DNA of 64,000 nucleotides, taken from a virus. Lineage: Duplodnaviria > Heunggongvirae > Uroviricota > Caudoviricetes. Made by a program: the position numbers and the translations under genes. Where the stretch lies: IMG/VR virus record IMGVR_UViG_3300022750_000190; one strand, 5' to 3'. Shown here in pieces: positions 259-58,876 of this stretch (its first letter is position 1; every line of letters begins with the position of its first letter). Below the pieces are notes generated by a model that saw nothing but the letters and a program-made list of their open reading frames with translations, had not been told where the DNA came from and did not search any database.

Positions 259-259
259 C

Positions 260-1852: not shown

Positions 1853-1937
1853 GCCCGGTTGGTGAAATTGGTAGACACATGAGACTTAAAATCTCCCGCC
1901 GAAGGGTGTGCCGGTTCGAGTCCGGCACCGGGCACCA
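1853..1937 (+). tRNA. tRNA-Leu(UAA), type II, CCA encoded (copy 1 of 3)
   Basis: Hand fold: acceptor GCCCGGU/ACCGGGC, Leu-type D-arm GGTGAAATTGGTAGAC, anticodon loop CUUAAAA, long variable arm, T-loop TTCGAGT, A73 and CCA. Confidence 0.85.
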
Positions 1938-1969
1938 AATATTAATTTATTATATGCAGGGTAATATTT

Positions 1970-2167
1970 ATGGCTGGTTATATTCATACTGACATTAAAG
2001 AAATTATGGATGACGCTGCTGATCCATCAACAGGAACAGATGATGTTAAATCATGTTTTCCTTCTACTGTTGGTTGGTCAGATGAACAGTTGAAAACGCT
2101 GAATGTGCTTCTTCAATATTCTTGGAATCGTGGCTATAAATCAGCTTGCCAAGACCTTGCAGAATAA
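1970..2167 (+). CDS. hypothetical small protein
   Basis: 65-aa ORF between tRNAs with upstream AGGGTAA. Confidence 0.4.
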   Translation: MAGYIHTDIKEIMDDAADPSTGTDDVKSCFPSTVGWSDEQLKTLNVLLQYSWNRGYKSACQDLAE

Positions 2168-2173
2168 AGCAAT

Positions 2174-2250
2174 GCCCCTTTAGCTCAGTTGGTTAGAGCG
2201 TCCGACTCATAATCGGCAGGTCGTAAGTTCAAGTCTTACAAGGGGCACCA
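2174..2250 (+). tRNA. tRNA with CAU anticodon (Met or lysidine-type Ile2), CCA encoded
   Basis: Acceptor GCCCCUU/AAGGGGC, D-arm GCTCAGTTGGTTAGAGC, anticodon loop CUCAUAA, T-arm GTAAGTTCAAGTCTTAC. The TTCAAGTCC T-arm and CTCATAATCG loop resemble bacterial tRNA-Ile2. Confidence 0.8.
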
Positions 2251-2275
2251 TTGATAAATATAGAGACTATCTAAA

Positions 2276-2599
2276 ATGGCAGAGCAAGAAAAAACTCGTT
2301 TTGAATTGTTTCATGCAAAAGCCAAATCGGATATATCGGCTTATAGAGACAATTTGAGAGGCGATGGTTCATTTGAATTTATTGCACAAGTACTTCAACT
2401 TGAAAGACTTTCTCATAAAATAAACCAAAACATGCTGAGTTATTTGTTTGGTGATATTTTGGGGCGTCATTTGGCTGTAAAATTTGCTACAGATTGTAAT
2501 CGAAACTTGTTATCTTTTTTGTCTAAATTGACTGAAGAATATAGAATTTTCATTTTGTATGAACTTAAAAATAATAAAAATTTGCTTGCTTATTGCTGA
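2276..2599 (+). CDS. hypothetical protein
   Basis: 107-aa ORF between tRNA genes. Confidence 0.45.
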   Translation: MAEQEKTRFELFHAKAKSDISAYRDNLRGDGSFEFIAQVLQLERLSHKINQNMLSYLFGDILGRHLAVKFATDCNRNLLSFLSKLTEEYRIFILYELKNNKNLLAYC

Positions 2600-2606
2600 C
2601 AAAAAT

Positions 2607-2683
2607 GGTCCCTTAGCTCAGTTGGTTAGAGCGTCCGACTCATAATCGGCAGGTCGTAGGTTCAAGTCCTACAGGGACCACCA
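2607..2683 (+). tRNA. tRNA with CAU anticodon (second species), CCA encoded
   Basis: Acceptor GGUCCCU/AGGGACC, same D-arm and anticodon-arm core as 2174-2250, T-arm GTAGGTTCAAGTCCTAC. Confidence 0.8.
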
Positions 2684-2705
2684 CTATACATATAAAGAGG
2701 TTTTA

Positions 2706-2990
2706 ATGCCGAATTTTCATGCTCACTCTCTGCCTCATAATGAGAACCTTATTGATAAGAAAGTAATTGTTTATACAAAAGACAAAATGACTATCGGTAT
2801 TCTTTGTAAAGTAGACCAAGTAGTTTATGGTGTAAAATCAACATACACAGTTATTGTTGATGAGCAACAGGTTAGAGTTCAAGGTATTTTGATTCCTTAC
2901 TCTTTAACTATTGAACATGACATCAAAGTTTCACCAGAATTAGCTACGGAAAATTTTATTTTTGCTCCATTCCGTCTAGAAGATTTTTAA
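2706..2990 (+). CDS. hypothetical protein
   Basis: 94-aa ORF with AAAGAGG about 8 nt upstream of the ATG. Confidence 0.45.
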   Translation: MPNFHAHSLPHNENLIDKKVIVYTKDKMTIGILCKVDQVVYGVKSTYTVIVDEQQVRVQGILIPYSLTIEHDIKVSPELATENFIFAPFRLEDF

Positions 2991-3053
2991 AAAATATTTT
3001 CTTAATGCTAAATTATAATGCTCCAAGTGTTTGAAAAATAAGTAAAAAAGTTG

Positions 3054-3082
3054 TTGACAAGAGTTTCGAAAGACGTTAAGAT
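3054..3082 (+). promoter_or_regulatory. sigma70-like promoter TTGACA-17-TAAGAT upstream of tRNA-Ser
   Basis: TTGACA at 3054-3059 and TAAGAT at 3077-3082. It shares the upstream element GAAAAATAAGTAAAA-AGTTGTTGACAAG with the promoter at 4521. Confidence 0.55.
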
Positions 3083-3113
3083 AGTTACACAAAGCAAGAA
3101 AATGTAATAATAT

Positions 3114-3201
3114 GGATGAATGGCCGAGTGGTTTAAGGCAGCAGTCTTGAAAACTGCCGGGTGTAACAGCCCCTAGAGTTCGAATCTCTATTCATCCGCC
3201 A
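3114..3201 (+). tRNA. tRNA-Ser(UGA), type II, CCA encoded
   Basis: Acceptor GGAUGAA/UUCAUCC, anticodon stem GCAGU/ACUGC with loop CUUGAAA, long variable arm, T-arm TAGAGTTCGAATCTCTA, G73, CCA. Confidence 0.85.
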
Positions 3202-3205
3202 ATTT

Positions 3206-3291
3206 GGGAAGTAGTTTAGCGGTTAAAACATCAAGACTCCTGCAGGCTGAGTTTTGAAGATGGGACAGTTCGAATCTGTCCTTTCCCACCA
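3206..3291 (+). tRNA. atypical tRNA-like gene (extended anticodon arm; anticodon not assignable)
   Basis: Acceptor GGGAAGU/CUUUCCC, D-arm GTTTAGCGGTTAAAAC, T-arm GACAGTTCGAATCTGTC, A73 and CCA are all tRNA-like. The anticodon region folds as a 9-bp stem UCAAGACUC/GAGUUUUGA with a 9-nt loop CUGCAGGCU. Confidence 0.35.
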
Positions 3292-3428
3292 GTTATGTGG
3301 CTTAGTCAGCGACACACCTAACCAAGAGGCTTAAGACTCTAATTAGTGGTGGTCAGGATTGTTTACGCTGGCAAACTCCTTTAGCGGGGAGATCTGAGGG
3401 TTCGAGACCCTATGGCTGCGTCGAAAAT
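3292..3428 (+). other. unassigned structured segment with an orphan T-arm-like motif (GGGTTCGAGACCC)
   Basis: T-arm-like hairpin at about 3396-3413. No complementary acceptor 5' strand was found by hand within 130 nt. Confidence 0.2.
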
Positions 3429-3505
3429 TGGTATACGGCTCTGGTGAAGAGTGTGAATCGGTCACTTAATCATGTATGTAGGTTCGAGTCCTACTATACC
3501 AGCCA
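3429..3505 (+). tRNA. tRNA-like gene, 77 nt, CCA encoded; anticodon arm could not be folded by hand
   Basis: Perfect acceptor UGGUAUA/UAUACCA, D-arm GCTC-TGGTGAA-GAGT, T-arm GTAGGTTCGAGTCCTAC, G73 and CCA. The 24-nt middle gives no canonical 5-bp stem with a 7-nt loop. Confidence 0.4.
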
Positions 3506-3604
3506 GTTTTAAATGAGATGGCGGTTCAATGCCGCTTCTGGCTCTTGCAAGTTCCGGCTGGGGTTGGTAGTATAATTTGGTAATTACGCATTTAAAACAT
3601 TTTT

Positions 3605-3681
3605 GCGTCCGTAGCTCAGTTGGATAGAGCATCCGCCTTCTAAGCGGATGGCCACTGGTTCGAGTCCAGTCGGACGCACCA
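3605..3681 (+). tRNA. tRNA-Arg(UCU), CCA encoded (copy 1 of 2)
   Basis: Acceptor GCGUCCG/CGGACGC, D-arm GCTCAGTTGGATAGAGC, anticodon stem UCCGC/GCGGA with loop CUUCUAA, T-arm ACTGGTTCGAGTCCAGT, A73, CCA. Confidence 0.85.
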
Positions 3682-3710
3682 AATCTAAAATGAAGCTTTC
3701 ATAGATTATT

Positions 3711-4243
3711 TTAGACGAGTCCTTCGGGACGCTGCATTATCGTCACAAGTGTTATCCAATATGGCAACTTCTATTGGATGAACGACGATATTGTAGGTTG
3801 GAAGTTGCAAAATTCAGGATTTAAAGAACGGTAAAACCAATGCTGATATAGGTTGGTTTTGGGCTAGTCCTTCGGGGCGCTGCATTATCGCCCAAGCGTC
3901 AATCAATATGGCAACTTCTATTGATTGAACGACGATAGTGCAGTTTTGAAGTTGTGATTTTTGTTCCAAAATACGATAGAACTATGTTTTATCCAATCCT
4001 TCGGGGTGCTTAAATATTGTCAAAGTGTCAAATAACATGGCAACTTCTGTTATATGAACGATGATATTTCGGTTTGGGAGTTGCAAGATTTGATGTTGTA
4101 AAGAACGGTAAAGGCAGTGCTGATATAGACTGACTTTGGGCTAGTCCTTCGGGGCGCTGTTACAATGCCGGTGTGTCAATCAGTATGGTGTCTTCTGTTG
4201 ATTGAATGACGTTGCTAACAGTTAGGGAAGACACATTTTTTTT
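3711..4243 (+). ncRNA. tandem array of four homologous structured RNA elements of about 140 nt, organised as a duplicated dimer, ending in an intrinsic terminator
   Basis: Units begin near 3717, 3867, 3996 and 4144, each with a UUCG-capped hairpin GUCC-UUCG-GGAC. They share a long-range helix (GCUGCAUUAUCG...CGACGAUAUUG) and an internal hairpin. The 19-mer CTAGTCCTTCGGGGCGCTG is identical at 3863 and 4141. Compensatory changes keep pairing (GCAACUUC/GAAGUUGC in units 1-3 versus GUGUCUUC/GAAGACAC in unit 4). U8 tract at 4236-4243. Confidence 0.5.
4187..4243 (+). terminator. intrinsic terminator closing the structured-RNA array
   Basis: Stem GTGTCTTC...GAAGACAC with a nested CTGTT/AACAG hairpin, followed by TTTTTTTT. 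Confidence 0.5.
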
Positions 4244-4275
4244 GTTACATTATTTTGTCACGAAGAGAGGTTATT

Positions 4276-4485
4276 ATGTCATTAGTTGAATTTGGTTTGA
4301 ATACAGGTTTTAATTATCGTCTTCAAAAAGATGCTGATGCTATTAATGATAAATACAATAACAAAATCAAAAACACTTCTTTTCGTGGTGAAATTGTAAA
4401 ACTTGATACACAAAGGCGTGATGAATTAAGCAAATTGCATACTTCACATGGCAAAAAATATCAAGGTAGGGGATTCATCGAATAA
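4276..4485 (+). CDS. hypothetical small protein
   Basis: ATG at 4276 preceded by AAGAGAGG 6 nt upstream. The track ORF starts at TTG 4255. Confidence 0.45.
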   Translation: MSLVEFGLNTGFNYRLQKDADAINDKYNNKIKNTSFRGEIVKLDTQRRDELSKLHTSHGKKYQGRGFIE

Positions 4486-4520
4486 TGCTTCAAACGATTG
4501 AAAAATAAGTAAAATAGTTG

Positions 4521-4549
4521 TTGACAAGGGTGTTGCAGGACGATAGAAT
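4521..4549 (+). promoter_or_regulatory. sigma70-like promoter TTGACA-17-TAGAAT for tRNA-Leu copy 2
   Basis: TTGACA at 4521-4526 and TAGAAT at 4544-4549. The leader TAGTCACACAAAG is shared with the copies at 1819 and 30500. Confidence 0.6.
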
Positions 4550-4580
4550 AGTCACACAAAGCGAGAAGATACAAAGCAAT

Positions 4581-4665
4581 GCCCGGTTGGTGAAATTGGT
4601 AGACACATGAGACTTAAAATCTCCCGCCGAAGGGTGTGCCGGTTCGAGTCCGGCACCGGGCACCA
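4581..4665 (+). tRNA. tRNA-Leu(UAA), copy 2 (identical to 1853-1937)
   Basis: Sequence identical to copy 1. Confidence 0.85.
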
Positions 4666-4678
4666 AATGTTGTAAAAT

Positions 4679-4762
4679 GCGTATGTGGTGGAATGGCATA
4701 CACGCTAGTCTAAGAAGCTAGTGCCGAAAGGCTTGTGGGTTCGAGTCCCATTGTACGCACCA
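4679..4762 (+). tRNA. type-II tRNA, Leu-like; anticodon reads AAG in the hand fold
   Basis: Acceptor GCGUAUG/UGUACGC (two GU pairs), anticodon stem CUAGU/GCUAG with loop CUAAGAA, 13-nt variable arm UGCCGAAAGGCUU, T-arm GTGGGTTCGAGTCCCAT, A73, CCA. A34 is unusual, so the assignment is tentative. Confidence 0.55.
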
Positions 4763-4770
4763 GAAAAAGA

Positions 4771-4799
4771 TTGACGTGATAGTTTGAATGTTGTATAAT
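4771..4799 (+). promoter_or_regulatory. sigma70-like promoter TTGACG-17-TATAAT upstream of tRNA-like RNA A
   Basis: TTGACG at 4771-4776 and TATAAT at 4794-4799. Confidence 0.6.
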
Positions 4800-4819
4800 T
4801 ATCACATATTACAGAATAT

Positions 4820-4989
4820 GGGTACTACCCAACTGGATCATTTGGCGTTGTCATACGTGCAGACAACAATATATGTGTAAGTGGGGGTTAAGCGAGATAT
4901 TAGTATTTATTGTTGGATGAGACCGCACGTACTCGGAAAGCTTTAAAGAAAGTAGTAGCTTGTTGGTTCGATTCCATCAGTATCCGCCA
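4820..4989 (+). ncRNA. tRNA-like structured RNA A, about 170 nt, with tRNA acceptor stem, T-arm and CCA (insert-containing tRNA or stable RNA)
   Basis: 5' GGGUACU pairs with 3' AGUAUCC, followed by G73 and CCA. T-arm GTTGGTTCGATTCCATC, D-arm-like CCAA-CTGGATCAT-TTGG, and a 6-bp hairpin GUUGUC-AUACGUGCA-GACAAC. Homologous to 10644-10808. Confidence 0.5.
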
Positions 4990-5001
4990 GACGTTTAAAA
5001 T

Positions 5002-5078
5002 GGGCCTTTAGCTCAGTTGGTCAGAGCACTCGACTCATAATCGATTGGTCGTAGGTTCAAGTCCTACAAGGCCCACCA
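5002..5078 (+). tRNA. tRNA with CAU anticodon (third species), CCA encoded
   Basis: Acceptor GGGCCUU/AAGGCCC, U8, D-arm GCTCAGTTGGTCAGAGC, anticodon loop CUCAUAA, T-arm GTAGGTTCAAGTCCTAC. Confidence 0.8.
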
Positions 5079-5151
5079 TTTTAAAGAATACGGGAATTGA
5101 ACTGTAAAGGTTCAAGATGATCTAGCGTAGGATAGGGGCGACGATCAAAAT

Positions 5152-5236
5152 GCAAGTGTAAAGGTGCGGTAGTGTAGCCTCTGGCAGCGACGGCATCAAG
5201 TTGGTTACGGTGGTTCGAATCCATCTTCTTGCACCA
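5152..5236 (+). tRNA. tRNA-like gene of about 85 nt with canonical T-arm and CCA; 5' half not resolvable by hand
   Basis: T-arm GGTGGTTCGAATCCATC, then UUCUUGC-A-CCA. The best 5' partner, GCAAGUG, pairs at 5-6 positions. The internal GGTAGTGTAGCC looks like a D-arm. Confidence 0.3.
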
Positions 5237-5290
5237 ATGTTGTGGCGGCTTATGCCCAAACCTACTGTAAAATGGCAAAATAAGCAATAT

Positions 5291-5379
5291 GGGGAGGTAG
5301 CTCAGTTGGTCAGAGCGAATAACATAGATTCTAGAGTCTCGTTATGATGTCGGTGGTTCGAATCCACCCCTCCCCACCA
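5291..5379 (+). tRNA. atypical tRNA-like gene, 89 nt, with a perfect tRNA frame but a 17-nt insertion in the anticodon arm
   Basis: Acceptor GGGGAGG/CCUCCCC, U8, D-arm GCTCAGTTGGTCAGAGC, T-arm GGTGGTTCGAATCCACC, A73, CCA. Anticodon stem AUAAC/GUUAU encloses AUAGAUUCUAGAGUCUC. Confidence 0.4.
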
Positions 5380-5394
5380 GCTTCATGAAACAAT

Positions 5395-5470
5395 TGGCGA
5401 ATAGCTCAGTTGGTAGAGCGACGGACTGTTAATCCGTTGGTCGTAGGTTCGAGTCCTACTCCGCCAGCCA
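5395..5470 (+). tRNA. tRNA-Asn(GUU), CCA encoded
   Basis: Acceptor UGGCGAA/UCCGCCA (one mismatch), D-arm GCTCAGTTGGTAGAGC, anticodon stem ACGGA/UCCGU with loop CUGUUAA, T-arm GTAGGTTCGAGTCCTAC, G73. Confidence 0.8.
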
Positions 5471-5527
5471 AACACGGCTCAACTTGTTTAGTTGTATAAA
5501 ACACTGTTGAGTTCTTTAAACCATACC

Positions 5528-5648
5528 TTTCACGCTTCTTTATAGCGCACCAGAAAGGTTATTGATTCATGGATATTTCACGCTTTTAAGCGCACCAGAA
5601 ATATCGAAAGAGAATACTTTTCACGCTTCTTGTAGGCGCACCAGAAAA
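5528..5648 (+). repeat. three tandem copies of a mini-hairpin motif TTTCACGC-loop-GCGCACCAGAAA
   Basis: Copies at about 5528-5556, 5577-5602 and 5619-5648, each a short CGC/GCG hairpin followed by CACCAGAAA. They resemble tRNA 3' acceptor-plus-CCA ends. Confidence 0.5.
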
Positions 5649-5655
5649 GTAGTTT

Positions 5656-5731
5656 GCCGATTTAGCTCAGTTGGTAGAGCAACCGCCTTGTAAGCGGTAG
5701 GTCGTGAGTTCGAGTCCCACAATCGGCACCA
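5656..5731 (+). tRNA. tRNA-Thr(UGU), CCA encoded
   Basis: Acceptor GCCGAUU/AAUCGGC, anticodon stem ACCGC/GCGGU with loop CUUGUAA, T-arm GTGAGTTCGAGTCCCAC, A73. Confidence 0.85.
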
Positions 5732-5830
5732 GTTTTTGTATCAGCGTTGCCACCCTAAGCAAGGTGCGGAAAAAGGCTATTGGAACATAGAGGTTCGAAT
5801 CCTCGGCAGCGTTGGTGCAGAAAGTATTAA
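5732..5830 (+). other. degenerate tRNA-like segment: T-arm GAGGTTCGAATCCTC without a matching acceptor stem
   Basis: T-arm motif at about 5789-5806. The flanks carry a direct repeat CAGCGTTG rather than complementary strands. Confidence 0.25.
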
Positions 5831-5950
5831 ATGCAGTGAAGGTCTTTGTTTTGATCTTCTTTTCCATAATCCGACCCCCTCCTAGGATTTTGGATTAGTG
5901 TCCCACTGCTAAAGACCTCTTCAGTTTATCGAAGGGGCACTATTAAAATG
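5831..5950 (+). other. structured spacer with a long-range helix GAAGGUCUUU / AAAGACCUC and a nested AAUCC/GGAUU hairpin
   Basis: 5838-5847 is complementary to 5911-5919. A possible leader for the downstream tRNA-like gene. Confidence 0.25.
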
Positions 5951-6019
5951 CTAGACGCTCAGTCGGGAGCCATCGCATGTTAGCGATACAGTTAGGGTTC
6001 AAATCCCTTTTCTAGACCA
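5951..6019 (+). tRNA. short (about 69 nt) tRNA-like gene with a reduced D-arm; anticodon loop AUGUUAG (GUU-like)
   Basis: Anticodon arm AUCGC-AUGUUAG-GCGAU, T-arm AGGGTTCAAATCCCT, 3' UUUCUAG-A-CCA, acceptor 5 bp. The D region is only about 14 nt. Confidence 0.3.
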
Positions 6020-6119
6020 TACGGAAGATGTTTATACAAAAAGGATAAAAGGAATTTAATTAGTTATTATTAAAATATCCAAACTCAAAAAGTCAATAAA
6101 CTTTTAAGAGGATAATAAA

Positions 6120-6326
6120 ATGAGAACTAAATTGAAGATTTACGCAATGGATTTGGGATGGAGAGGGAGCATCATTGTTGTAGCAGAAAACATGGATGAA
6201 GCAAGGAAATTAATGGAGAATGAAGCAAACTATAAGGAATACCATGAAGGAATGGATGAGAAGGAAGAAATAACGGAACACAAAATTGCAAAAGGATTTA
6301 AATGGACGGATCACGGAGATATGTAA
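6120..6326 (+). CDS. hypothetical small protein (paralog of 6529-6714)
   Basis: RBS AAGAGGA 7 nt upstream. Shares LKIYAMDLGWRGS...EEA with 6529-6714. Confidence 0.5.
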   Translation: MRTKLKIYAMDLGWRGSIIVVAENMDEARKLMENEANYKEYHEGMDEKEEITEHKIAKGFKWTDHGDM

Positions 6327-6337
6327 TAAAAATGGAA

Positions 6338-6388
6338 CTGGTTTAACCCTGAGAGTGTATAACTGATGGGCTAAACCAGTATTTTTTT
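6338..6388 (+). terminator. intrinsic terminator
   Basis: Stem CTGGTTTA/TAAACCAG followed by TATTTTTTT. Confidence 0.6.
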
Positions 6389-6407
6389 GCCTAATGAAAA
6401 ATAATCC

Positions 6408-6436
6408 TTGCTTAAAATAGACTTGCTTAGTATAAT
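6408..6436 (+). promoter_or_regulatory. sigma70-like promoter TTGCTT-17-TATAAT
   Basis: TTGCTT at 6408-6413 and TATAAT at 6431-6436. The 15-mer TGAGAGTGTATAACT at 6456-6470 is repeated from 6350-6364. Confidence 0.45.
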
Positions 6437-6528
6437 AACCACATCAAACAGAGCATGAGAGTGTATAACTAATTGCTTGATTGACAAACCAAATGAAGAT
6501 AAAGAATAATCTAATTTGGAGAAACAAA

Positions 6529-6714
6529 ATGTTAAAATTGTATGTTGCATGTATGGGTTGGGAAGGTTCTGCTGTTGCAATTGCTCACTCGAAAGAAGAA
6601 GCAATTCAGATGATTACGGAAAATCATTATCGTTTTGGAGAAGAGCATCATAAATATGTTGAAGAGTTTCCTTTTCAACAAGGTTATGTAAATGGAGATT
6701 CAGGAGACGCATAA
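6529..6714 (+). CDS. hypothetical small protein (paralog of 6120-6326)
   Basis: ATG at 6529 with GGAGAAAC upstream. The track ORF starts at 6481 in the same frame. The stop codon TAA lies in the loop of hairpin GAGACGC-ATAA-GCGTCTC. Confidence 0.5.
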   Translation: MLKLYVACMGWEGSAVAIAHSKEEAIQMITENHYRFGEEHHKYVEEFPFQQGYVNGDSGDA

Positions 6715-6793
6715 GCGTCTCAAACTACTTTTAAAGCAGCAAATCCTTTGTAGCAAGAGCTATGGTGCAAACTAACTATAGAGGATATACAAA

Positions 6794-7096
6794 ATGACTG
6801 ATGCATATATTTTAAAAGAAGTTGAAGCCGTTACTACAATCGCTAAAAATATTTTTGGTGACATTGTTCATAAAGTCTATTATGCAGAAGTGCATTATGA
6901 CCATAGAGAAGAATCTCAAACCATCAGTATGATTGATAGACAAATAACAAGTGCTTGCAACTCAGAAAAATCGATTGACCAAGATGCAAAAACAATTATT
7001 ATTGAGTTTACAAATGGTCGAAAAGTAGTATTCTCAAACTCCGAATGGGGTAGCATGGAGGCTTTTTCTGATGATGAGTATAAAAAGATTGTTTAA
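6794..7096 (+). CDS. hypothetical protein
   Basis: 100-aa ORF with RBS GAGGAT. Confidence 0.45.
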   Translation: MTDAYILKEVEAVTTIAKNIFGDIVHKVYYAEVHYDHREESQTISMIDRQITSACNSEKSIDQDAKTIIIEFTNGRKVVFSNSEWGSMEAFSDDEYKKIV

Positions 7097-7121
7097 TTGC
7101 ATCAAACAGTTAAATTAAATC

Positions 7122-7150
7122 TTGATAACCTTGTTTCATTGTTGTATGAT
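7122..7150 (+). promoter_or_regulatory. sigma70-like promoter TTGATA-17-TATGAT upstream of the tRNA at 7319
   Basis: TTGATA at 7122-7127 and TATGAT at 7145-7150. The leader contains UUCG-capped and other hairpins. Confidence 0.45.
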
Positions 7151-7318
7151 ATGTTTCTGAAAGAGTGATGTATGCACTACTGTTGATAATCCTGAGTTAT
7201 CAATGGAACGTGCCTTGCGATGACAACTTCGGTTGTTCTGACCGCATCAGTTAGACATTGAGGCTAGTTAATAACTCTCTCTTTGTGGCTGATGTGTCAG
7301 TAGATACAATGCTCCTTT

Positions 7319-7395
7319 GGGCCTTTAGCTCAGTTGGTCAGAGCACTCGACTCATAATCGATTGGTCGTAGGTTCAAGTCCTACAAGGCCCACCA
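7319..7395 (+). tRNA. tRNA with CAU anticodon (identical to 5002-5078)
   Basis: Identical 77-nt sequence. Confidence 0.8.
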
Positions 7396-15027: not shown

Positions 15028-15088
15028 TTTGTACGCCATTATTCATTATAATGGCGTATCTCAAACAAACACTGCTTTAGGTTAAAGA

Positions 15089-15313: not shown

Positions 15314-15321
15314 AGAAAAAC

Positions 15322-24736: not shown

Positions 24737-24813
24737 GTCCGTATAGCTCAGATGGATAGAGCAACAGCCTTCTAAGCTGTGGGTCGTAGGTTCGAATCCT
24801 ACTGCGGATACCA
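24737..24813 (+). tRNA. tRNA-Arg(UCU), CCA encoded (copy 2, a distinct sequence)
   Basis: Acceptor GUCCGUA/UGCGGAU, D-arm GCTCAGATGGATAGAGC, anticodon stem ACAGC/GCUGU with loop CUUCUAA, T-arm GTAGGTTCGAATCCTAC. Confidence 0.85.
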
Positions 24814-30510: not shown

Positions 30511-30595
30511 GCCCGGTTGGTGAAATTGGTAGACACATGAGACTTAAAATCTCCCGCCGAAAGGTGTGCCGGTTCGAGTCCGGCACCGGGCACCA
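30511..30595 (+). tRNA. tRNA-Leu(UAA), copy 3 (one substitution in the variable arm)
   Basis: Identical to 1853-1937 except CCGAAAGG versus CCGAAGGG. Confidence 0.85.
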
Positions 30596-31420: not shown

Positions 31421-31601
31421 GCCCATAATTTAACCCTCAATTTTAAAATTTAAATATGTGTACTATAATATTTTCCTTTCATTTTAAAAATATTCCTTGC
31501 ATTTAAAAACACATAAGAATACAATTCGCGAAATCTAAACCATTGGAAGACGGAAATACATGATAGACCTAAATAAAAATAACCCGGAGAGAGAAAAAAA
31601 T

Positions 31602-32465
31602 ATGAGTATAAAAAAAATTGCTGCACTTGTAATTGCTGCTATTATAAGCCTTTTGCTTTTAATTATAATTTTCGATAGTGCATACACTGTTGATGAGGGT
31701 GAAAGAGGCATTATTCTTCGAAATGGTAAAGCCATTGGTGTAGCAGAACCCGGCTTGAACTTTAAAGCCCCTATTGTTGACCGCATTAAAACTATCAGCG
31801 TTCGTAGCTATACTGCTAAATATGATAAATTGCAAGCATATAGTAAAGACCAGCAACCAGCAGACTTGCGTGTTTCTGTAACTTACCGTGTTCCACCTAC
31901 CGAAGTAGTTGATCTTTACAGCACTTACTCTACTGTTGAAGGTATCACTGACCGTAGCATAAACCGTCAAGTTCCAACACAAGTAGAAAACGTTTTCGGT
32001 CAATACACCGCTATATCCGCAGTACAAAATCGTGCAAAACTTGTTGCTGATTTGGGCGTAGCCGTTAAAAACTCAATTACTGGTCCTATCTTCATTGAAA
32101 GCATACAGATTGAAAACATTGATTTCTCTAAAGCCTACGAAAAGTCTGTTGAAGACCGTATGAAAGCCGAAGTAGATGTTCAAACTCAGAATCAAAACTG
32201 GGAAAAGGAAAAAGTTTCTGCTAACATTGAAGTAACAAAAGCAGAAGCTGCTGCAAAAGTTAAAATTGCTGGTGCAGAAGCAGATGCTAAATCCATCAAA
32301 CTTCGTGGTGAAGCAGAGGCAGAAGCCATTAAAGCAAGAGCAGCAGCATTGGCACAAAACGAAAACCTTGTTGAGTTGACCAAAGCTGAACGTTGGAATG
32401 GTGTTCTGCCAACAACTATGCTCCCTAACACTGCAATGCCTTATTTTGAAGTTAACAAAAAATAA
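31602..32465 (+). CDS. SPFH / band-7 (prohibitin, HflK/C-like) membrane protein
   Basis: N-terminal transmembrane helix, then DEGERGIILRNGKAIGVAEPGLNFKAPIVDRIKTISVRSY and an Ala/Glu/Lys-rich coiled C-terminus. RBS GGAGAGAG. Confidence 0.65.
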   Translation: MSIKKIAALVIAAIISLLLLIIIFDSAYTVDEGERGIILRNGKAIGVAEPGLNFKAPIVDRIKTISVRSYTAKYDKLQAYSKDQQPADLRVSVTYRVPPTEVVDLYSTYSTVEGITDRSINRQVPTQVENVFGQYTAISAVQNRAKLVADLGVAVKNSITGPIFIESIQIENIDFSKAYEKSVEDRMKAEVDVQTQNQNWEKEKVSANIEVTKAEAAAKVKIAGAEADAKSIKLRGEAEAEAIKARAAALAQNENLVELTKAERWNGVLPTTMLPNTAMPYFEVNKK

Positions 32466-32481: not shown

Positions 32482-32510
32482 AAGTCCTCCTTTGTTGGAG
32501 GATTTTTTTT
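32482..32510 (+). terminator. intrinsic terminator
   Basis: AAGTCCTCC-TTTGTT-GGAGGATT followed by TTTTTTT. Confidence 0.65.
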
Positions 32511-32589: not shown

Positions 32590-33012
32590 ATGAATTACAA
32601 AGCACTAATAGTTTTAGCTTCTGCACTCTTACTAAATGCTTGTGGACCTACGCCACAGGATATTGTTAGTAATAACGCTGTATCAGAACGAAATTTGTCC
32701 AATCCTGAAACTATTGGCAAAACGCCTGATGGTCAAATTGTAAAACGTGCAATTGTTAAATATCAGTGTGATTCTTGTGGTAGTTCTACAAGTCATTTTG
32801 TGTATTTTGTTGGCAGCGTAAAAAGTGATAATTATCCTGTTCAATCTGGAAAAACATCTTATAATCATGTTGATGTTACACTTCCCGAGAACCCTACTGC
32901 CGAAGATATTTTGAAAAAGGCAAAAGAAATTCAAGATCAACAAAAGCAAAGAGACGAAGAAGAATTTAAACGTCTTTGTAAAGAACTAAATAAACCAACT
33001 TGTAACCTTTAA
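32590..33012 (+). CDS. lipoprotein (paralog of 33029-33670)
   Basis: Signal plus lipobox-like LLNAC. Shares DGQ.VKR...KY.C...HFVY(F/Y)VG with its neighbour. Confidence 0.5.
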   Translation: MNYKALIVLASALLLNACGPTPQDIVSNNAVSERNLSNPETIGKTPDGQIVKRAIVKYQCDSCGSSTSHFVYFVGSVKSDNYPVQSGKTSYNHVDVTLPENPTAEDILKKAKEIQDQQKQRDEEEFKRLCKELNKPTCNL

Positions 33013-33028
33013 TTAAAAAGGATTAATT

Positions 33029-33670
33029 ATGAAAAATAAAATTTTTAAAACTCCTGCTGTTTTGGTATTTGCCTTATGTGCTATTTTTATTCAAGGTTGC
33101 CAAAAAACACCAGAAGATATTCAGAAAGAAATTGATAAAGACAATCTTGTTACAGAACAGAATAAAGAAAGTATTAAACAACCTGTTGTTATGGGAACAA
33201 CTGTTGATGGGCAAGAAATAAAGAGAATTCATTTTAAATATAAGTGTAAAACTAGTGATAGTTGCTACAGCACTGTAGACCATTTTGTTTATTATGTAGG
33301 TAATTCGGTTAGTGATAATCGTGAAGTCCGAATAGCCAAAAGTGTATATAATAACGTTGAAGTTTCTCTTGGTACTAAGCCAACCCCTGAACAAGTGATT
33401 GCAGAAGGAGAAAGAATTAAAAAAGAAATTGAAGATTCTGAACGCAAAGAACTCAAAAGACTCAGCCATAAATATAATTACGATGAATGTGGTAAAAGTA
33501 TGCCTGAATTTGTTTTACCTGAAAATCCGACAATAGAACAGCAAACTTATTCTTTAGCTTATGAACAAGCTCAAAAAGCAAGAGAAGCATGTATTCATGA
33601 ACATGAAGAATATGAAAAAGCAAAAAAAGACTTGGAAGCCGAAAAAGCTAAATTAAAAAAGGAATCTTAA
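33029..33670 (+). CDS. lipoprotein (paralog of 32590-33012)
   Basis: Signal plus lipobox IQGC and a C-terminal Lys/Glu coiled region. Confidence 0.5.
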   Translation: MKNKIFKTPAVLVFALCAIFIQGCQKTPEDIQKEIDKDNLVTEQNKESIKQPVVMGTTVDGQEIKRIHFKYKCKTSDSCYSTVDHFVYYVGNSVSDNREVRIAKSVYNNVEVSLGTKPTPEQVIAEGERIKKEIEDSERKELKRLSHKYNYDECGKSMPEFVLPENPTIEQQTYSLAYEQAQKAREACIHEHEEYEKAKKDLEAEKAKLKKES

Positions 33671-33671
33671 C

Positions 33672-34667
33672 ATGGCAATAATTCTAACAGGCGATAGACC
33701 AACAGGTTCCCTTCATTTAGGGCATTATATCGGCTCGCTTCGAAATCGTGTGGCGTTGCAACACGAACACACTCAATATCTGTTAATTGCCGATAATCAA
33801 GCATTAACAGATAACATGGGAAATCCCATGAAAGTTCGTGATAATATCATTGAAGTTGCAAAAGACTACCTTGCTTCTGGCATTGAACCAACTAAAACAA
33901 CTATTGCTATTCAATCTTTGCTCCCTGCAATTGCTGAATTAACTCTTTTGTATATGAACTTTGTTACTGTTTCTCGTTTAGAACGAAACCCAACAATTCG
34001 TGATGAAATCAAGTCAAGAAACTTTGGTCGTGATATTCCAGCAGGGTTCCTTGCTTATCCTGTTGCACAAGCAGCCGATATAACAGCATTTAAAGCCTCT
34101 TTAGTGCCTGTTGGTGAAGATCAAGCTCCATTGATTGAACAAGCTAACGAAGTTGTTAAAAAGGTTAACAGACAAGCTGAAAAAGAAATTCTTCCCGAAA
34201 TTACTGCTTTGATTCCAACCATTGGTAGACTTCCAAGTCTTGATGGGAAATCAAAAATGAGTAAATCTTTAGGTAATACAATCAATCTTTATTCCAGTAA
34301 TGACGAAATTACCAAAGCTGTTCGAGCTATGTTTACTGACCCAACTCATATTAAAGTATCAGATCCGGGGAAAGTTGATGGCAACGTAGTATTTACTTAC
34401 TTAGACGCTTTTGATACGAATCTTGAAGAACTTAATGCTTTGAAAGAACATTATATTCGTGGTGGACTTGGCGATTCCGTTATCAAGAAAAGGCTAACAG
34501 AGATCTTAATTGAAACATTAACTCCTATTCGTGAAAAAAGACTTCAATTGAATAATGAACACGAATATGTTCTTAGTGTATTAAAACAAGGGACAGACAT
34601 TGCAAGAGAAGTAACTCAAACCAATTTAAATGAAATCAAAAGACATTTAAATATGTTTTCTTTTTGA
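33672..34667 (+). CDS. trpS: tryptophanyl-tRNA synthetase
   Basis: HIGH-type motif TGDRPTGSLHLGHY, VPVGEDQ, YPVAQAADI and KMSKS, collinear with bacterial TrpRS. 331 aa. Confidence 0.85.
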   Translation: MAIILTGDRPTGSLHLGHYIGSLRNRVALQHEHTQYLLIADNQALTDNMGNPMKVRDNIIEVAKDYLASGIEPTKTTIAIQSLLPAIAELTLLYMNFVTVSRLERNPTIRDEIKSRNFGRDIPAGFLAYPVAQAADITAFKASLVPVGEDQAPLIEQANEVVKKVNRQAEKEILPEITALIPTIGRLPSLDGKSKMSKSLGNTINLYSSNDEITKAVRAMFTDPTHIKVSDPGKVDGNVVFTYLDAFDTNLEELNALKEHYIRGGLGDSVIKKRLTEILIETLTPIREKRLQLNNEHEYVLSVLKQGTDIAREVTQTNLNEIKRHLNMFSF

Positions 34668-34693
34668 TTCAACCAACTTACAGGGAAAATATT

Positions 34694-35254
34694 ATGGGAT
34701 ATACAACTGATTTTTATGGCACTTTTAAAATCACACCAGCTTTAAAAGAAGAGCATAAAGAATATTTACTTGCATTTTCTGATAGCAGAAGAATGAAGCG
34801 TAATGCTCAAAAATGTGAATCACTTCATGATCCTATTAGATTGGCAGTTGAACTCCCTGTTGGCATAGAAGGTGAGTTCGTTGTATCACAAACTGGATAT
34901 GATGACAAATCAATTATTGAACGCAATAGTCCATCTTCAACTCAACCGGGGCTTTGGTGTCAATGGATTCCCAATGATGAAGGCACTGAACTAAAATGGA
35001 ATGGTGCTGAAAAATTCTATGCTTATATAGAATGGCTTGACTATCTTCATACGAAGTTATTTAAACCATGGGGCTACACTTTGGAAGGGATGGTTAAATG
35101 GCGAGGCGAAGATCATGATGATACTGGTAGAATTACTTTCAAAGATAATATATTAAGTCACCAAACTCAAAAGCAACGTGATGATTTACTGGATGAATTT
35201 CTTGAAAAACAAGAAACTGAAAAACCTTCTATTGACTTAAAGAAAAGAGACTAA
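34694..35254 (+). CDS. hypothetical protein, paralog family X (member 1 of 3)
   Basis: MGYTTDF.G.F.ITP.LKEEHK.YL...QPGLWCQW.P...G..L.W.GAEKFY.YIEWL.YL. ATG at 34694 with RBS AGGGAAAA. Confidence 0.5.
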   Translation: MGYTTDFYGTFKITPALKEEHKEYLLAFSDSRRMKRNAQKCESLHDPIRLAVELPVGIEGEFVVSQTGYDDKSIIERNSPSSTQPGLWCQWIPNDEGTELKWNGAEKFYAYIEWLDYLHTKLFKPWGYTLEGMVKWRGEDHDDTGRITFKDNILSHQTQKQRDDLLDEFLEKQETEKPSIDLKKRD

Positions 35255-35259
35255 ATATT

Positions 35260-36456
35260 ATGTTTTTTGAACACTTAAAATTAGAAAAAGAAGATTTCAA
35301 AGATTTCTTAGTATCTAAGAAATTGGAAGTTATTGAATTGACTATCAGAGAGGATTACTTTTCTTTTTCAAACACGAAACAAAATGGTCATTTTATTATC
35401 GCTAATGGCCCACTTGATAAATTACTAGGCTTCATTTTCTCTAATTTCACAAAGCCCCAATTTCGAGAAATGATGGTTAACATTGAACAGCTTCTATCAC
35501 TCGCTAATAACGAAGTTTCTTTTGATGGCTTATACAAAAAGACTACATTAACTTTTATATTTGAAGGTGATAAAATCAGTATGATGATAGACAAAGTTCT
35601 TCATATACTCATTGATAATACTGACACTGTTAATTTCTCATTATCTGGTATTGAATTTTCTTTTAAAAGAAACTCTAAATTTGGTGAGTTTTTAAATCTT
35701 ATACAACAAAAAACAAAAGAACTTTTTGAAAGTACTTACCATCTTGATTACACAATTGAAAATGCATCCAAGATAAAAGCGCTTATTAACACTCAATACA
35801 ACCTTAATGCCCCAAAATACAATTCAGCTATCGATCATAAATATGATCAAAATAAAGTAGCCCAATATATGAATGATAACTATGTTGGTGTTATGCTTTC
35901 TTCTGTCATAAATATGAATGAACCATTGAATTCATTAGTTACCAAACCAACGGTTGATATGTCAAGAAAAGTTAATCATAATGGTAAATTCTCAGGAACT
36001 GAACGCATTACATTTCCAGTAAATCACATTAATGAAACTGAAACACTATTAGACCATATTTTAATTAATGAATGGTCAAAGAAAACAGTTCAAATGATTA
36101 AGTCAATGACCGCATATCAAACTGCAATTAATGACCTAGATATTCGTCATGTTTCTTTTTTTATGCCTAAATTATTAGATGAAAAAAAAGATATTGAACG
36201 TTTTGAGCTATTCAGTATAGTTTCTGACTCAGTATCTTATGGCAATAATCAACAAAGTTTTAAAATTATTTTTGGTTTAAGTGTTCATATTCAAATTAAA
36301 GATGGCACTGCAATTGTTTATGATTCCAAATTTAAAACTTTAGATGAAGCTTATACTGACTTTATTGAATTTTTTAGAAAAAAAGTTACGAAAAAGTTGC
36401 CTAATAAGAAAATAGACACAGAAACTTTAAAATTATTAAACTTGAAAAGCATTTAA
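35260..36456 (+). CDS. hypothetical protein
   Basis: 398-aa ORF between TrpRS and the ThyA-family gene. Confidence 0.5.
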   Translation: MFFEHLKLEKEDFKDFLVSKKLEVIELTIREDYFSFSNTKQNGHFIIANGPLDKLLGFIFSNFTKPQFREMMVNIEQLLSLANNEVSFDGLYKKTTLTFIFEGDKISMMIDKVLHILIDNTDTVNFSLSGIEFSFKRNSKFGEFLNLIQQKTKELFESTYHLDYTIENASKIKALINTQYNLNAPKYNSAIDHKYDQNKVAQYMNDNYVGVMLSSVINMNEPLNSLVTKPTVDMSRKVNHNGKFSGTERITFPVNHINETETLLDHILINEWSKKTVQMIKSMTAYQTAINDLDIRHVSFFMPKLLDEKKDIERFELFSIVSDSVSYGNNQQSFKIIFGLSVHIQIKDGTAIVYDSKFKTLDEAYTDFIEFFRKKVTKKLPNKKIDTETLKLLNLKSI

Positions 36457-36734: not shown

Positions 36735-37667
36735 ATGAATGATATGCAACCTTTTCACGAAACCTATAAACAATTATTAAAAGACTTACTAGAATCCGAT
36801 GTTGAAATGAACAATAGAACTGGCGTTAACATAAAAGTTAGTGATACTCCTATTTCTTTCAATGTTGACTTATCAGATGGAGTATTACCTACAATTGGAG
36901 TAAGAAAAACATTCCCAAAGAGTGCCGCAGCAGAAGTTGCTTGGTTTATTAGTGGAGAACAAGATGTTTCATTTATTAAAATGTATGCTCCAATGTGGGA
37001 TAAATTTTCTGAAACCATAAAAAAAGATGATGCTGAAATAGAAGGCGTTTTAGCTGCTTATGGATACAGATGGAGAAATCACTTTGGAAGAGATCAATTA
37101 ACTGATGCTGTTGAAGCATTGAAAAAAGATCCTAGTAATCGAAGAATTTATATCTCTGCTTGGGATGCTGCAACTGATGGCTTGCTTGAAGAGGGTCAAT
37201 CAAATGTTCCATGTCCAGTAGGATTCACTCTAAGCATTGTGAAAGGTAAACTTAATTCTGCTGTTATGCTTCGTTCTTCTGATGTCTTTGTAGGGCTACC
37301 ATATGATGTTATGGGGCATTCTTTATTGATGGATTCGATTGCTAAAACATTAAACGTTGATTTAGGAATCATGCACACTACATTAGCACACCCTCATCTA
37401 TATCAATTCCACTGGAAAATGGCTGAACAATGTTTAAATAATGATATTAAAATACCTGCATTACAAATGCCTCATTGGAGTTTAGAAGAAATAGAAAATA
37501 AACCTAATGAGTATGTAGAAAAAATAAGACAAGATTCACTAAAACACGAATGGCCTGAATACAATCCCAAACCTTTTGTTGTTGATAAAAAAGATGACGC
37601 TCAAAAAGAACAGTTAAATGAATTAATCAAAAAACCAGCTAAAAAACAAACGCCCAAATTTAGTTGA
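36735..37667 (+). CDS. ThyA-family enzyme (thymidylate synthase / dNMP hydroxymethylase or methylase family) with Asp at the ThyA Asn177-equivalent position
   Basis: NNRTGVN, VPCPVGF (catalytic Cys region) and LRSSDVFVGLPYDVMGH align to ThyA RSCDVFLGLPFN, with the final Asn replaced by Asp as in T4 dCMP hydroxymethylase (RSNDVVFGFRND). Confidence 0.7.
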   Translation: MNDMQPFHETYKQLLKDLLESDVEMNNRTGVNIKVSDTPISFNVDLSDGVLPTIGVRKTFPKSAAAEVAWFISGEQDVSFIKMYAPMWDKFSETIKKDDAEIEGVLAAYGYRWRNHFGRDQLTDAVEALKKDPSNRRIYISAWDAATDGLLEEGQSNVPCPVGFTLSIVKGKLNSAVMLRSSDVFVGLPYDVMGHSLLMDSIAKTLNVDLGIMHTTLAHPHLYQFHWKMAEQCLNNDIKIPALQMPHWSLEEIENKPNEYVEKIRQDSLKHEWPEYNPKPFVVDKKDDAQKEQLNELIKKPAKKQTPKFS

Positions 37668-37719: not shown

Positions 37720-38229
37720 ATGGGATATACAACTGATTTTGAAGGTTCTTTTCAAATAACACCAACTTTGAAAGAAGAACACAAACAATATTTGATTACT
37801 TTTTCTAAAAAAAGAAGAATGAAACGTGACTCCATTAAATGTGAAGCATTTAATGACCCCATTCGTCAGGCAGTCGAACTTCCCATTGGCATTGAAGGTG
37901 AGTTTACTGTTTTTGGTGATGAAGATTTGTTTTCTAATGATTCATCGATTATTGACCATAATCTCCCATCCCCTACACAACCCGGTCTTTGGTGCCAATG
38001 GATTCCCATGGAAGATGGAAATGCTTTAGTATGGGATGGCGCTCAAAATTTTTACAATTACATTGAATGGCTTGAATATTTAAAGACAAGTTTCTTTGAA
38101 CCTTGGGGTTATACCTTGTCAGGCACAATGAAATGGAATGGACAAGGTTATAATGACACAGGAACCATCACTGTTGATAACAACATCATTACTACTAAAA
38201 AGGGCTGGAACTATGGGATACACAACTGA
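37720..38229 (+). CDS. hypothetical protein, paralog family X (member 2)
   Basis: Same motif set as 34694-35254. Confidence 0.5.
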   Translation: MGYTTDFEGSFQITPTLKEEHKQYLITFSKKRRMKRDSIKCEAFNDPIRQAVELPIGIEGEFTVFGDEDLFSNDSSIIDHNLPSPTQPGLWCQWIPMEDGNALVWDGAQNFYNYIEWLEYLKTSFFEPWGYTLSGTMKWNGQGYNDTGTITVDNNIITTKKGWNYGIHN

Positions 38230-58744: not shown

Positions 58745-58876
58745 ATGGCACACGCAAATCGCAGTAAGGTTCTCCAAGTGGTTCGTGAAGACCGTCTTTT
58801 CAGTCACAAGGTTGAGAAACCAAAGGCTGGCAAAGGCTCTTACAGCCGTAAAGGGCGTCAAGAAAAGCACTGGTAA
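58745..58876 (+). CDS. arfA: ArfA-like alternative ribosome-rescue factor, 43 aa (not in ORF track)
   Basis: MAHANRSKVLQVVREDRLFSHKVEKPKAGKGSYSRKGRQEKHW matches, as best I recall it, E. coli ArfA (...[28 protein letters not shown]...). Weak SD AGGG. Confidence 0.55.
   Translation: MAHANRSKVLQVVREDRLFSHKVEKPKAGKGSYSRKGRQEKHW

Follow-up and report, generated by a model that had tools for sequence, protein, structure and literature searches.

A complete type II tryptophanyl-tRNA synthetase gene on a giant, low-GC element rich in ORFans

Here, we analyze a 64,000-nucleotide stretch of DNA (IMG/VR virus record IMGVR_UViG_3300022750_000190, filed under Caudoviricetes; hereafter the window) that encodes a full-length tryptophanyl-tRNA synthetase (TrpRS). 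Judging from sequence comparison and structure modeling, we consider it probable that the protein is a competent type II enzyme, that its gene was captured once and has been inherited vertically, and that it would give the element carrying it a supply of Trp-tRNA-Trp independent of the host. The enzyme itself is ordinary: by sequence and fold it is a complete, strongly conserved bacterial-type TrpRS. Huge phages were reported in 2020 to encode aminoacyl-tRNA synthetases (aaRS), a pMEGA megaplasmid with a TrpRS II was described in 2025, and the giant element, for which phage and plasmid readings compete, is more interesting than the enzyme.

Results and discussion

Identity and tRNA-reading residues of the enzyme

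A first-pass annotation made from the letters alone had described a complete, phage-encoded TrpRS with intact HLGHY, GEDQ and KMSKS motifs. The full-length open reading frame (ORF) at 33672-34667 and all three motifs are present. The hidden Markov model it had proposed as a check, TIGR00233 (trpS), is passed with 221.6 bits (E 1.6e-65, cut-off 176.75), and Pfam PF00579 matches with an E-value of 1.5e-52. Two tyrosyl-tRNA synthetase models reach 58.8 and 40.2 bits and stay below their cut-offs of 220 and 113.8, so that the alternative of a tyrosyl-tRNA synthetase-like or truncated pseudo-aaRS with broken motifs fails. The functional positions are as follows.

33672..34667 (+): TrpRS coding sequence, type II lineage, ATG start, 331 residues plus stop
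33714..33725 (+): HLGH, the HIGH-type motif, residues 15-18 (HLGHY, residues 15-19)
34068..34082 (+): QAADI specificity helix, residues 133-137
34113..34124 (+): GEDQ motif, residues 148-151
34137..34139 (+): E156, counterpart of Glu155 of the E. coli enzyme (EcTrpRS), reader of discriminator base G73
34254..34268 (+): KMSKS loop, residues 195-199, of low model confidence as expected of a mobile loop
34335..34340 (+): T222-D223, counterparts of EcTrpRS Thr225/Asp226, for anticodon bases C35/A36
34485-34487 (+): K272, counterpart of Lys274, for C35/A36 recognition

By alignment, D136 of the QAADI helix corresponds to the Asp of the AADI sequence in EcTrpRS and BsTrpRS, and the Asp of the TrpRS specificity helix binds the indole nitrogen (PMC12135181 and work on the indolmycin-bound Bs enzyme). 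The tRNA-reading residues were checked against the 2025 paper on an EcTrpRS-tRNA co-crystal, in which Glu155 reads G73, Thr225, Asp226 and Lys274 read C35/A36, and Gly271 reads C34 (PMC12135181). In the alignment, the window enzyme keeps these readers as E156, T222, D223, K272 and G267, while its departures from the EcTrpRS set, Q152P and S227P, are common to all cellular type II enzymes. Since the tRNA-reading residues are kept, ordinary bacterial tRNA-Trp should be recognized, that is, the enzyme is predicted to read a bacterial-type tRNA-Trp with G73 and a CCA anticodon.

Type II lineage

The best match among solved structures is TrpRS II of D. radiodurans (2a4m/1yi8, E 8e-105, residues 4-330); Bacillus-type TrpRS structures match at about 1e-38 and E. 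coli-type ones at about 1e-28. An AlphaFold2 model of the window enzyme (predicted local distance difference test 85, predicted template-modeling score 0.84) spans the Rossmann-fold catalytic domain and the helical anticodon-binding domain at full length, with low-confidence parts confined to the KMSKS loop and residues 227-236. Superposed on 1yi8, it yields a template-modeling score of 0.94 and a root-mean-square deviation of 1.9 A at 50% identity, compared with scores of 0.83-0.91 for other TrpRS structures. D. radiodurans TrpRS II resembles the window enzyme in having HLGH, Gln at the BsTrpRS His43 position, Pro at the EcTrpRS Q152 and S227 positions, and no Trp. It differs in carrying an N-terminal extension of about 20 residues, which the window enzyme lacks, aligning from 1yi8 residue 25. 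Further, D. radiodurans TrpRS II is described as a stress-induced second copy, whereas the window gene sits on an extrachromosomal element, and the nitric-oxide synthase family, to which the D. radiodurans partner of TrpRS II belongs, is absent among the window ORFs scanned.

To place the enzyme, we rooted a tree by paralogue pairs, namely Salmonella STM4508 ("TrpRS II") with trpS STM3481, and the pair of E. faecalis enzymes. In this tree, the TrpRS of the window falls into the type II lineage with 100% bootstrap support, apart from STM3481 and the housekeeping TrpS of E. faecalis. Membership in type II does not make an enzyme an auxiliary copy: whole chromosomes of A. baumannii hold a single TrpRS locus, which is type II, while Proteus and Salmonella have two loci with the type II copy auxiliary. 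As the sole TrpRS of A. baumannii belongs to it, the type II lineage is fully competent as a housekeeping enzyme. A further trait is the absence of tryptophan from the protein itself, seen in 76 of 78 cellular type II relatives and 37 of 38 members of the clade described below, while housekeeping-type TrpRS contain one or two Trp residues. We rejected Trp-freeness as an element-specific adaptation, the trait spanning the whole type II lineage. If active, a compact, Trp-free TrpRS would be a candidate for studying translation in giant elements and for engineering TrpRS/tRNA pairs.

Descent and selection

A large protein search for relatives was followed by alignment and a bootstrapped tree; viral and genome collections were queried with the alignment, single-sequence scans being too specific. 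The protein search recovered some 45 proteins with 68-100% identity, almost all of them of precisely 331 residues and short at the N-terminus. The nearest cellular enzymes, from Cupriavidus, Pararobbsia and Acinetobacter, show 65-67% identity, and those of Acinetobacter and Burkholderiales have 6-12 extra N-terminal residues compared with the 331-residue clade. The clade is monophyletic (100% bootstrap), and in this phylogeny, which the first-pass annotation had called for, its sister group consists of the Acinetobacter plus Burkholderiales enzymes (92%), a position that may help to infer the host range of the elements. HLGH and KMSKS are invariant across the clade, and 32 of the 37 columns that are invariant in 22 cellular TrpRS, housekeeping enzymes included, are kept; the changed columns are conservative or peripheral. 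Cellular type II enzymes have Lys at position 110 and Gly at 189, compared with Arg or Ser at 110 and Ser at 189 in the clade, G189S being the sole fixed difference between the two groups. The cellular genes of Acinetobacter and Burkholderiales lie among core genes such as sucABCD, in contrast to the window gene, which lies among ORFans (predicted genes of no known family).

All members of the 331-residue clade are confined to giant low-GC contigs, from 437 kb to 1.92 Mb in size, on which almost all genes are ORFans. The window protein itself has an exact match on the ENA contig ERZ27228643:k141_1005676 (604,209 bp), of which the window represents positions 43,915-107,914. The related contigs are:

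662,595 bp (ERZ27268025 k141_173081): TrpRS of 90% identity
1,691,479 bp (ERZ28645558 SUKU23-1 scaffold_1): TrpRS of 76% identity
437,043, 773,483, 834,842 and 1,917,244 bp (the last being JGI 3300034157 Ga0370506_000001): TrpRS of 72% identity

The 662-kb relative is collinear with the window across 42 ORFs, and further ORFan families are common to the window and the 437-kb and 1.69-Mb contigs. The contigs of 1.69 and 1.92 Mb stem from independent assemblies. As the carrier contigs share ORFan families, they are related elements and not separate recipients of one transferred gene, although gene order near the TrpRS gene differs between sub-lineages.

The TrpRS gene is under strong purifying selection. 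The ratio of nonsynonymous to synonymous substitution rates (dN/dS) is 0.065 against the 90% relative, at a dS near 1. Comparison with the more divergent relatives gives 0.064-0.075, figures that deserve less trust since dS has reached saturation there. While the TrpRS is 90% identical to that of the 662-kb relative, its 41 syntenic neighbors there show 30-82% identity. GC content at third codon positions is 22% and matches the composition of the element, and this amelioration points to an old acquisition. Being the best-conserved gene of its neighborhood and forming a clean monophyletic clade, the TrpRS can be used to find, count and bin giant elements, and would thus provide a handle on elements mislabeled as partial "proviruses" in IMG/VR. 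We tentatively suggest, at rather less than an even chance, that giant bacterial elements of 0.44-1.92 Mb form an undescribed lineage, equipped with a predicted dCMP-modifying enzyme and a translation kit, for which the 331-residue TrpRS would be a core marker. At up to 1.92 Mb, the contigs are larger than any described phage genome (up to 735 kb) or pMEGA (up to 1.58 Mb).

Proposed role and alternatives

We propose that an ancestor of a lineage of giant, low-GC, ORFan-rich elements captured trpS once from a beta- or gammaproteobacterium and that the gene would since have been inherited vertically under strong purifying selection. The enzyme would be translated from a polycistronic message via a bacterial Shine-Dalgarno site and is predicted to charge bacterial-type tRNA-Trp with tryptophan, so that the element may obtain its own Trp-tRNA-Trp without relying on the host TrpRS. 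Dispersed along the element, the TrpRS gene and those for tRNAs reading A/U-ending codons, for ArfA and, in relatives, for ribosome recycling factor would together support translation. Aminoacylation activity, the benefit to the element and the choice of tryptophan are what we infer here. Several points weigh against the proposal. The first-pass annotation had seen no tRNA-Trp in the window, and neither ARAGORN, which finds 14 tRNAs, nor Rfam detects one in these 64 kb (84 kb of the 604-kb contig were read in total); the cognate tRNA may therefore be host-supplied. With 1.02% of codons, Trp usage is unremarkable and gives no reason for this specificity in particular, and the otherwise universally invariant lysine of column 110 is replaced by Arg or Ser in the clade. 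Buffering of translation against host shut-off or tRNA-targeting defence, the role the first-pass annotation had suggested, is plausible.

Alternatively, the selective value of the gene could lie in insensitivity, with the enzyme replacing a host TrpRS blocked by indolmycin, chuangxinmycin or toxin kinases of the HipT type. HipT phosphorylates TrpS within the KMSKS loop. Indolmycin-resistant second TrpRS copies are documented, type II TrpRS is common on large plasmids of Proteobacteria, and His43 of BsTrpRS, an indolmycin contact, is replaced by Gln in the window enzyme as in every aligned type II enzyme. However, the sole housekeeping enzyme of Acinetobacter has the same residues, which are therefore traits of the lineage and no evidence of selection for resistance. 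Further, the KMSKS loop including Ser197 is retained, and no antibiotic biosynthesis or toxin genes were seen near the TrpRS gene. We thus regard insensitivity as an unlikely explanation.

In a second alternative, the TrpRS would belong to a code-change module and load tryptophan onto a UGA-suppressor tRNA, as proposed for the TGA-recoded Jade phages; in two of their genomes, genes for a TrpRS, a suppressor tRNA and release factor RF1 precede the recoded lysis genes (Borges et al., bioRxiv 10.1101/2021.08.26.457843). Like the window element, Jade phages are mobile elements with a TrpRS beside translation genes; unlike it, they have the suppressor tRNA, RF1 and TGA recoding. Neither a suppressor tRNA nor a release factor was found in the window. 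ORF coverage rises from 0.748 to 0.820 when TGA is read as sense, but reading TAG as sense gives a similar value (0.802), and 18 of 115 predicted genes end in TGA. As the anticodon-reading residues are also the same as in cellular enzymes, this explanation appears highly improbable for the window. More generally, standard code 11 fits the window genes, and an alternative genetic code was rejected on this ground together with the TGA-terminated genes.

Preference thus stays with a competent TrpRS that would supply Trp-tRNA-Trp. Its putative partners in translation include the following genes.

1853..7395 (+): tRNA array with 12 of the 14 ARAGORN tRNAs and an additional aberrant tRNA-like gene; CCA is encoded throughout, and no member is for Trp
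24737-24813 and 30511-30595: the other tRNAs of the window
58745..58876 (+): ArfA homologue of 43 residues, ribosome rescue, Pfam PF03889 (...KAGKGSYSRKGRQEKHW)
14906-15460 in neighborhood L038 and 15255-15809 in L041: ribosome recycling factor gene of relatives, on the 1.92-Mb and 773-kb contigs

Both the tRNA array and the ArfA-like factor that the first-pass annotation had mentioned are thus real. The ARAGORN set comprises Leu, Met/CAU, Ser, Arg, Asn and Thr tRNAs, and Rfam adds one aberrant tRNA-like gene, which is not a tRNA-Trp. All window tRNAs have an encoded CCA. Identical copies occur (three Leu-UAA genes at 99-100%, and the CAU tRNAs at 5002 and 7319). Other tRNAs share an anticodon but differ in sequence, namely three CAU tRNAs (83-90%) and two Arg-UCU tRNAs (78%). 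The set fits the A/U-ending codons favored by the element, namely UUA, CUU, AGA, UCA and ACA. The window arfA gene ends in an ordinary stop codon. E. coli ArfA, by comparison, is made from a truncated non-stop mRNA. The recycling factor gene (frr) of relatives lies about 5 kb downstream of the TrpRS gene and scores 184.9 bits with TIGR00496 (cut-off 149.1).

Two tRNA-like genes of the array are aberrant. That at 3205-3291 (+) was missed by ARAGORN and has a 9-bp anticodon stem and a 9-nt loop (CUGCAGGCU), and that at 5291-5379 (+) is 89 nt long and called "Met". Both have normal acceptor, D and T arms and encoded CCA with enlarged anticodon arms, and could be pseudo-tRNAs, carriers of mini-insertions or decoys.

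Nature of the carrier

For hallmark genes, we examined 84 kb of the 604-kb contig (the window extended at both ends) and about a dozen related neighborhoods of about 20 kb each, and walked 10 kb further into the IMG/VR sub-region of one relative. Neither capsid, portal, terminase or tail genes nor relaxase, type IV secretion system (T4SS), Rep or Par genes were seen in the 84 kb and the related neighborhoods, and the additional walk brought up just a cation-efflux transporter of note. The GC content of the element is 32.6% (25-33% across related contigs), and about 95% of genes have no Pfam family in every neighborhood examined, compared with about 73% of ordinary genes having an entry. Rfam finds tRNAs and no rRNA in the window.

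The element carries bacterial expression signals. Upstream of the window genes, the share of G climbs from a level of about 6% and reaches 41-46% between positions -12 and -9, a Shine-Dalgarno 4-mer precedes 40% of genes against a background of 9%, and 30 of 78 same-strand gaps measure at most 20 nt. The Shine-Dalgarno signal, overlapping genes, lipobox peptides, encoded CCA and code 11 together argue for bacterial expression. A eukaryotic giant virus was rejected because of the strong Shine-Dalgarno signal, overlapping genes, lipobox peptides, encoded CCA, the bacterial-type TrpRS and ArfA. No kinship with moraphages or phage G was found.

The first-pass annotation had taken the gene to be phage-encoded. 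This is not established: the examined stretches hold no virion genes, relatives reach 1.69-1.92 Mb, and IMG/VR labels sub-regions of two larger relatives. A 192,830-bp uncultivated viral genome (UViG; sample 3300034157) is 100% identical to the 1,917,244-bp contig over the 21 kb compared and, by this match and its coordinates, represents a part of it; similarly, a UViG of 161,697 bp matches a 249-kb/773-kb contig. IMG/VR takes the whole contig in case of the 437-kb one only, while two larger relatives are present as sub-regions of 162-193 kb. The "viral" label of IMG/VR is therefore weak for these elements.

Still, the carrier could well be a megaphage, in which the TrpRS would act as an auxiliary enzyme of lytic infection and keep Trp-tRNA charged after shut-off of or attack on host translation. 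Phage families are present in the window (an HNH endonuclease, phrog_10079, phrog_31839, phrog_38666 in three copies and phrog_586/L5 gp82), a gene similar to T4 Y00F occurs in relatives, and homologues of the ORF at 29544 are restricted to phages of Proteobacteria. The many small same-strand genes, the contigs of the sub-lineage at 604-678 kb, inside the megaphage range, and the aaRS genes known from huge phages are also in line with a megaphage. On the other hand, no virion gene has come to light in the stretches examined. The largest described phage genome is still 735 kb (June 2026 jumbo-phage review), less than half the size of related contigs of 1.54-1.92 Mb. Further, the IMG/VR entries of two larger relatives are sub-regions of the kind that geNomad also calls in the non-viral pMEGAs. 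If the elements were viral, they would be by far the largest phage genomes.

A further argument for a megaphage comes from a thymidylate-synthase homologue located near the TrpRS gene.

36735..37667 (+): thymidylate-synthase homologue with Asp177, about 2 kb downstream of the TrpRS gene

It scores below the ThyA equivalog cut-off. Its nearest homologues, at 50-56% identity, are the protein of Xanthomonas phage Xp12 and those of kindred phages of Xanthomonas, Pseudomonas and Stenotrophomonas. Compared with solved enzymes, Cys146 is kept, His147 is changed to Pro and Asn177 to Asp. The Asn177Asp exchange shifts the substrate from dUMP to dCMP and marks viral contigs with modified cytosine, and XP12 DNA contains fully 5-methylcytosine (PMC8670742). 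On the strength of Asn177Asp and the Xp12-type kinship, we predict that the protein methylates or hydroxymethylates dCMP at C5, so that the DNA of the element would contain cytosine modified at the nucleotide level, a trait known from viruses. Homologues at 57-62% identity are found on other giant contigs (604,313, 677,834 and 1,539,155 bp), and the gene is missing at the syntenic spot of the 662-kb relative.

The closest described analogues of the carrier, by comparison with their published description, are the pMEGA megaplasmids. These have 1.31-1.58 Mb, a GC content of 25.7-29.6%, about 80% hypothetical proteins and 104-208 tRNAs in blocks with same-anticodon Leu, Lys and Met variants, and carry multi-copy TnpB, tandem paralogue arrays, immunity proteins and HflK/C homologues; they are without phage structural genes, yet geNomad predicts proviruses inside them (Guitor et al., bioRxiv 10.1101/2025.09.30.679422). 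Gene 752 of pMEGA4 is annotated as "Tryptophanyl-tRNA synthetase II" with 2a4m as best PDB hit, and prolyl- and histidyl-tRNA synthetases (ProRS, HisRS) are also listed (same preprint). A pMEGA-like conjugative megaplasmid, on which the TrpRS would be a "host-function variant" gene aiding translation of an AT-rich replicon across hosts, is thus likewise a real possibility that stops short of an even chance. Like the window TrpRS, pMEGA4_752, compared by its annotation, is a type II enzyme on a giant, low-GC, tRNA-rich proteobacterial element partly called provirus. The syndrome matches in low GC, richness in hypothetical genes, tRNA variants, TnpB, paralogue arrays, immunity-type proteins, HflK/C and megabase size, and in the parts of the window element seen few family hits and no rRNA, ribosomal proteins or core metabolism are observed, as in the pMEGAs. 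The geNomad provirus calls inside two relatives and the cation-efflux transporter of one relative also fit.

Against a pMEGA-like carrier, which would be expected to have conjugation and maintenance genes including a MOBF relaxase and ParF, stands the lack of relaxase, T4SS, Rep or Par genes in the stretches examined, and the likeness rests on the pMEGA description and annotation table. Sample accessions of the pMEGAs and of the clade do not overlap, and a search for a direct link via the NCBI-sourced clade members found nothing. The pMEGA hosts are Enterobacteriaceae, whereas no E. coli- or Salmonella-labeled protein occurs among the 331-residue clade and blastn in complete E. coli genomes gave no match. 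ArfA and ribosome recycling factor are not in the pMEGA4 annotation table, and ThyA of pMEGA4 strongly matches the E. coli enzyme, unlike the XP12-type homologue with Asp177 in the window. It is this viral-type homologue, differing from pMEGA4 ThyA, that leaves megaphage and megaplasmid about equally probable. If the elements were plasmid-like, pMEGA-type elements would extend beyond Enterobacteriaceae and could carry hypermodified DNA.

Finally, the carrier could be a bacterial chromosome with a housekeeping trpS: the 1.5-1.9-Mb contigs have the size of a cellular genome, Acinetobacter uses type II TrpRS for housekeeping, and frr is present in relatives. The near absence of Pfam families argues against a chromosome. 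Further, the regions scanned showed neither rRNA nor ribosomal protein or core metabolic genes, gene order near the TrpRS gene varies by sub-lineage, and families known only from PHROG are frequent. We therefore consider a chromosome very improbable.

TrpRS-like sequences in phage records

The first-pass annotation had further held that aaRS are rare in phages. This stands for ordinary phages: 40 TrpRS-like matches were obtained among 50,697 phage records, few of which make convincing phage genes, and all those examined in detail turned out to be bacterial or unverified. It does not extend to huge phages, whose genomes can encode as many as 15 aaRS, although the main text of that study makes no mention of tryptophan or TrpRS (Al-Shayeb et al. 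2020, PMC7162821). Those genomes were called phages from structural genes, none of which were seen in the examined stretches of the window element. The huge-phage records LR756501-3 gave only partial TrpRS matches of 27-31%, and close DNA relatives of the window were not found among the 50,697 records.

Several matches were rejected as phage genes. The top one lies in the record of Acinetobacter phage MD-2021a, in fact a contig of a bacterial chromosome, where sucABCD flanks it, and the Salmonella "phage" matches are annotated bacterial whole-genome contigs. The Enterococcus matches ("Enterococcus phage Efs 1-1-1") are unannotated, flagged UNVERIFIED_ORG and look bacterial, and the Listeria and "Bacteriophage sp." records are probably bacterial as well. 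Bacterial sequence filed as phage includes CAKLQH020000002.1, AFYI01000007.1, OR846592.1 and others; similarly, chromosomes of A. baumannii and Proteus of 3.7-4.1 Mb are filed in PLSDB (NZ_CP104448.1 and others).

Local gene context

The TrpRS gene is probably part of a five-gene transcription unit, as judged from gene spacing and conserved order.

32482..32505 (+): terminator-like hairpin plus T-run, closing the SPFH/HflKC-like gene; 5' limit of the TrpRS unit
32590..36456 (+): five-gene unit around TrpRS, with tight spacing and overlap; order kept in the 662-kb relative
32590-33012 (+): putative lipoprotein paralogue 1, lipobox LLNAC found by scan
33029-33670 (+): putative lipoprotein paralogue 2, lipobox-like IQGC found by eye
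33659..33663 (+): AAGGA, Shine-Dalgarno-like, 8 nt before the TrpRS ATG
34694-35254 (+): phrog_38666 paralogue, downstream of TrpRS in the unit
35260-36456 (+): ORFan of 398 residues, last gene of the unit

The ATG of the TrpRS gene follows 2 nt past the upstream stop codon (1 nt between), and the tandem lipoprotein pair upstream of it is retained in the 662-kb relative. No convincing plus-strand terminator was found inside 32590..36456, and no leader, T-box or attenuator at the TrpRS gene. Sigma-70-like sites near it number 42 compared with 34.6 expected; as this is no enrichment, we do not claim a promoter.

Further observations concern the neighboring genes. Upstream of the unit, an SPFH/Band-7 protein is encoded at 31560-32465 (+), with HflC/HflK as best, sub-threshold matches, followed by the strong terminator-like hairpin listed above. 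The phage-only family phrog_38666 is present as three paralogues (34694-35254, 37720-38229 and 38138-38749, all +) that flank the TrpRS gene and the thymidylate-synthase homologue. An HNH endonuclease-like ORF (phrog_3118) lies at 203-1285 (+), immediately 5' of the tRNA array. In relatives, tandem arrays of three to seven genes for proteins of about 250-260 residues, probably paralogous and of no known family, adjoin the TrpRS gene.

4030-6355 and 12116-14404 in neighborhood L010, 15959-20996 in L038, 16298-20996 in L041: arrays of genes for proteins of about 250-260 residues in related contigs

TnpB/Cas12f-like genes also recur by the TrpRS gene in relatives, namely at 4497-6197 in L004, 16612-17970 in L010 and 12439-13983 in L008.

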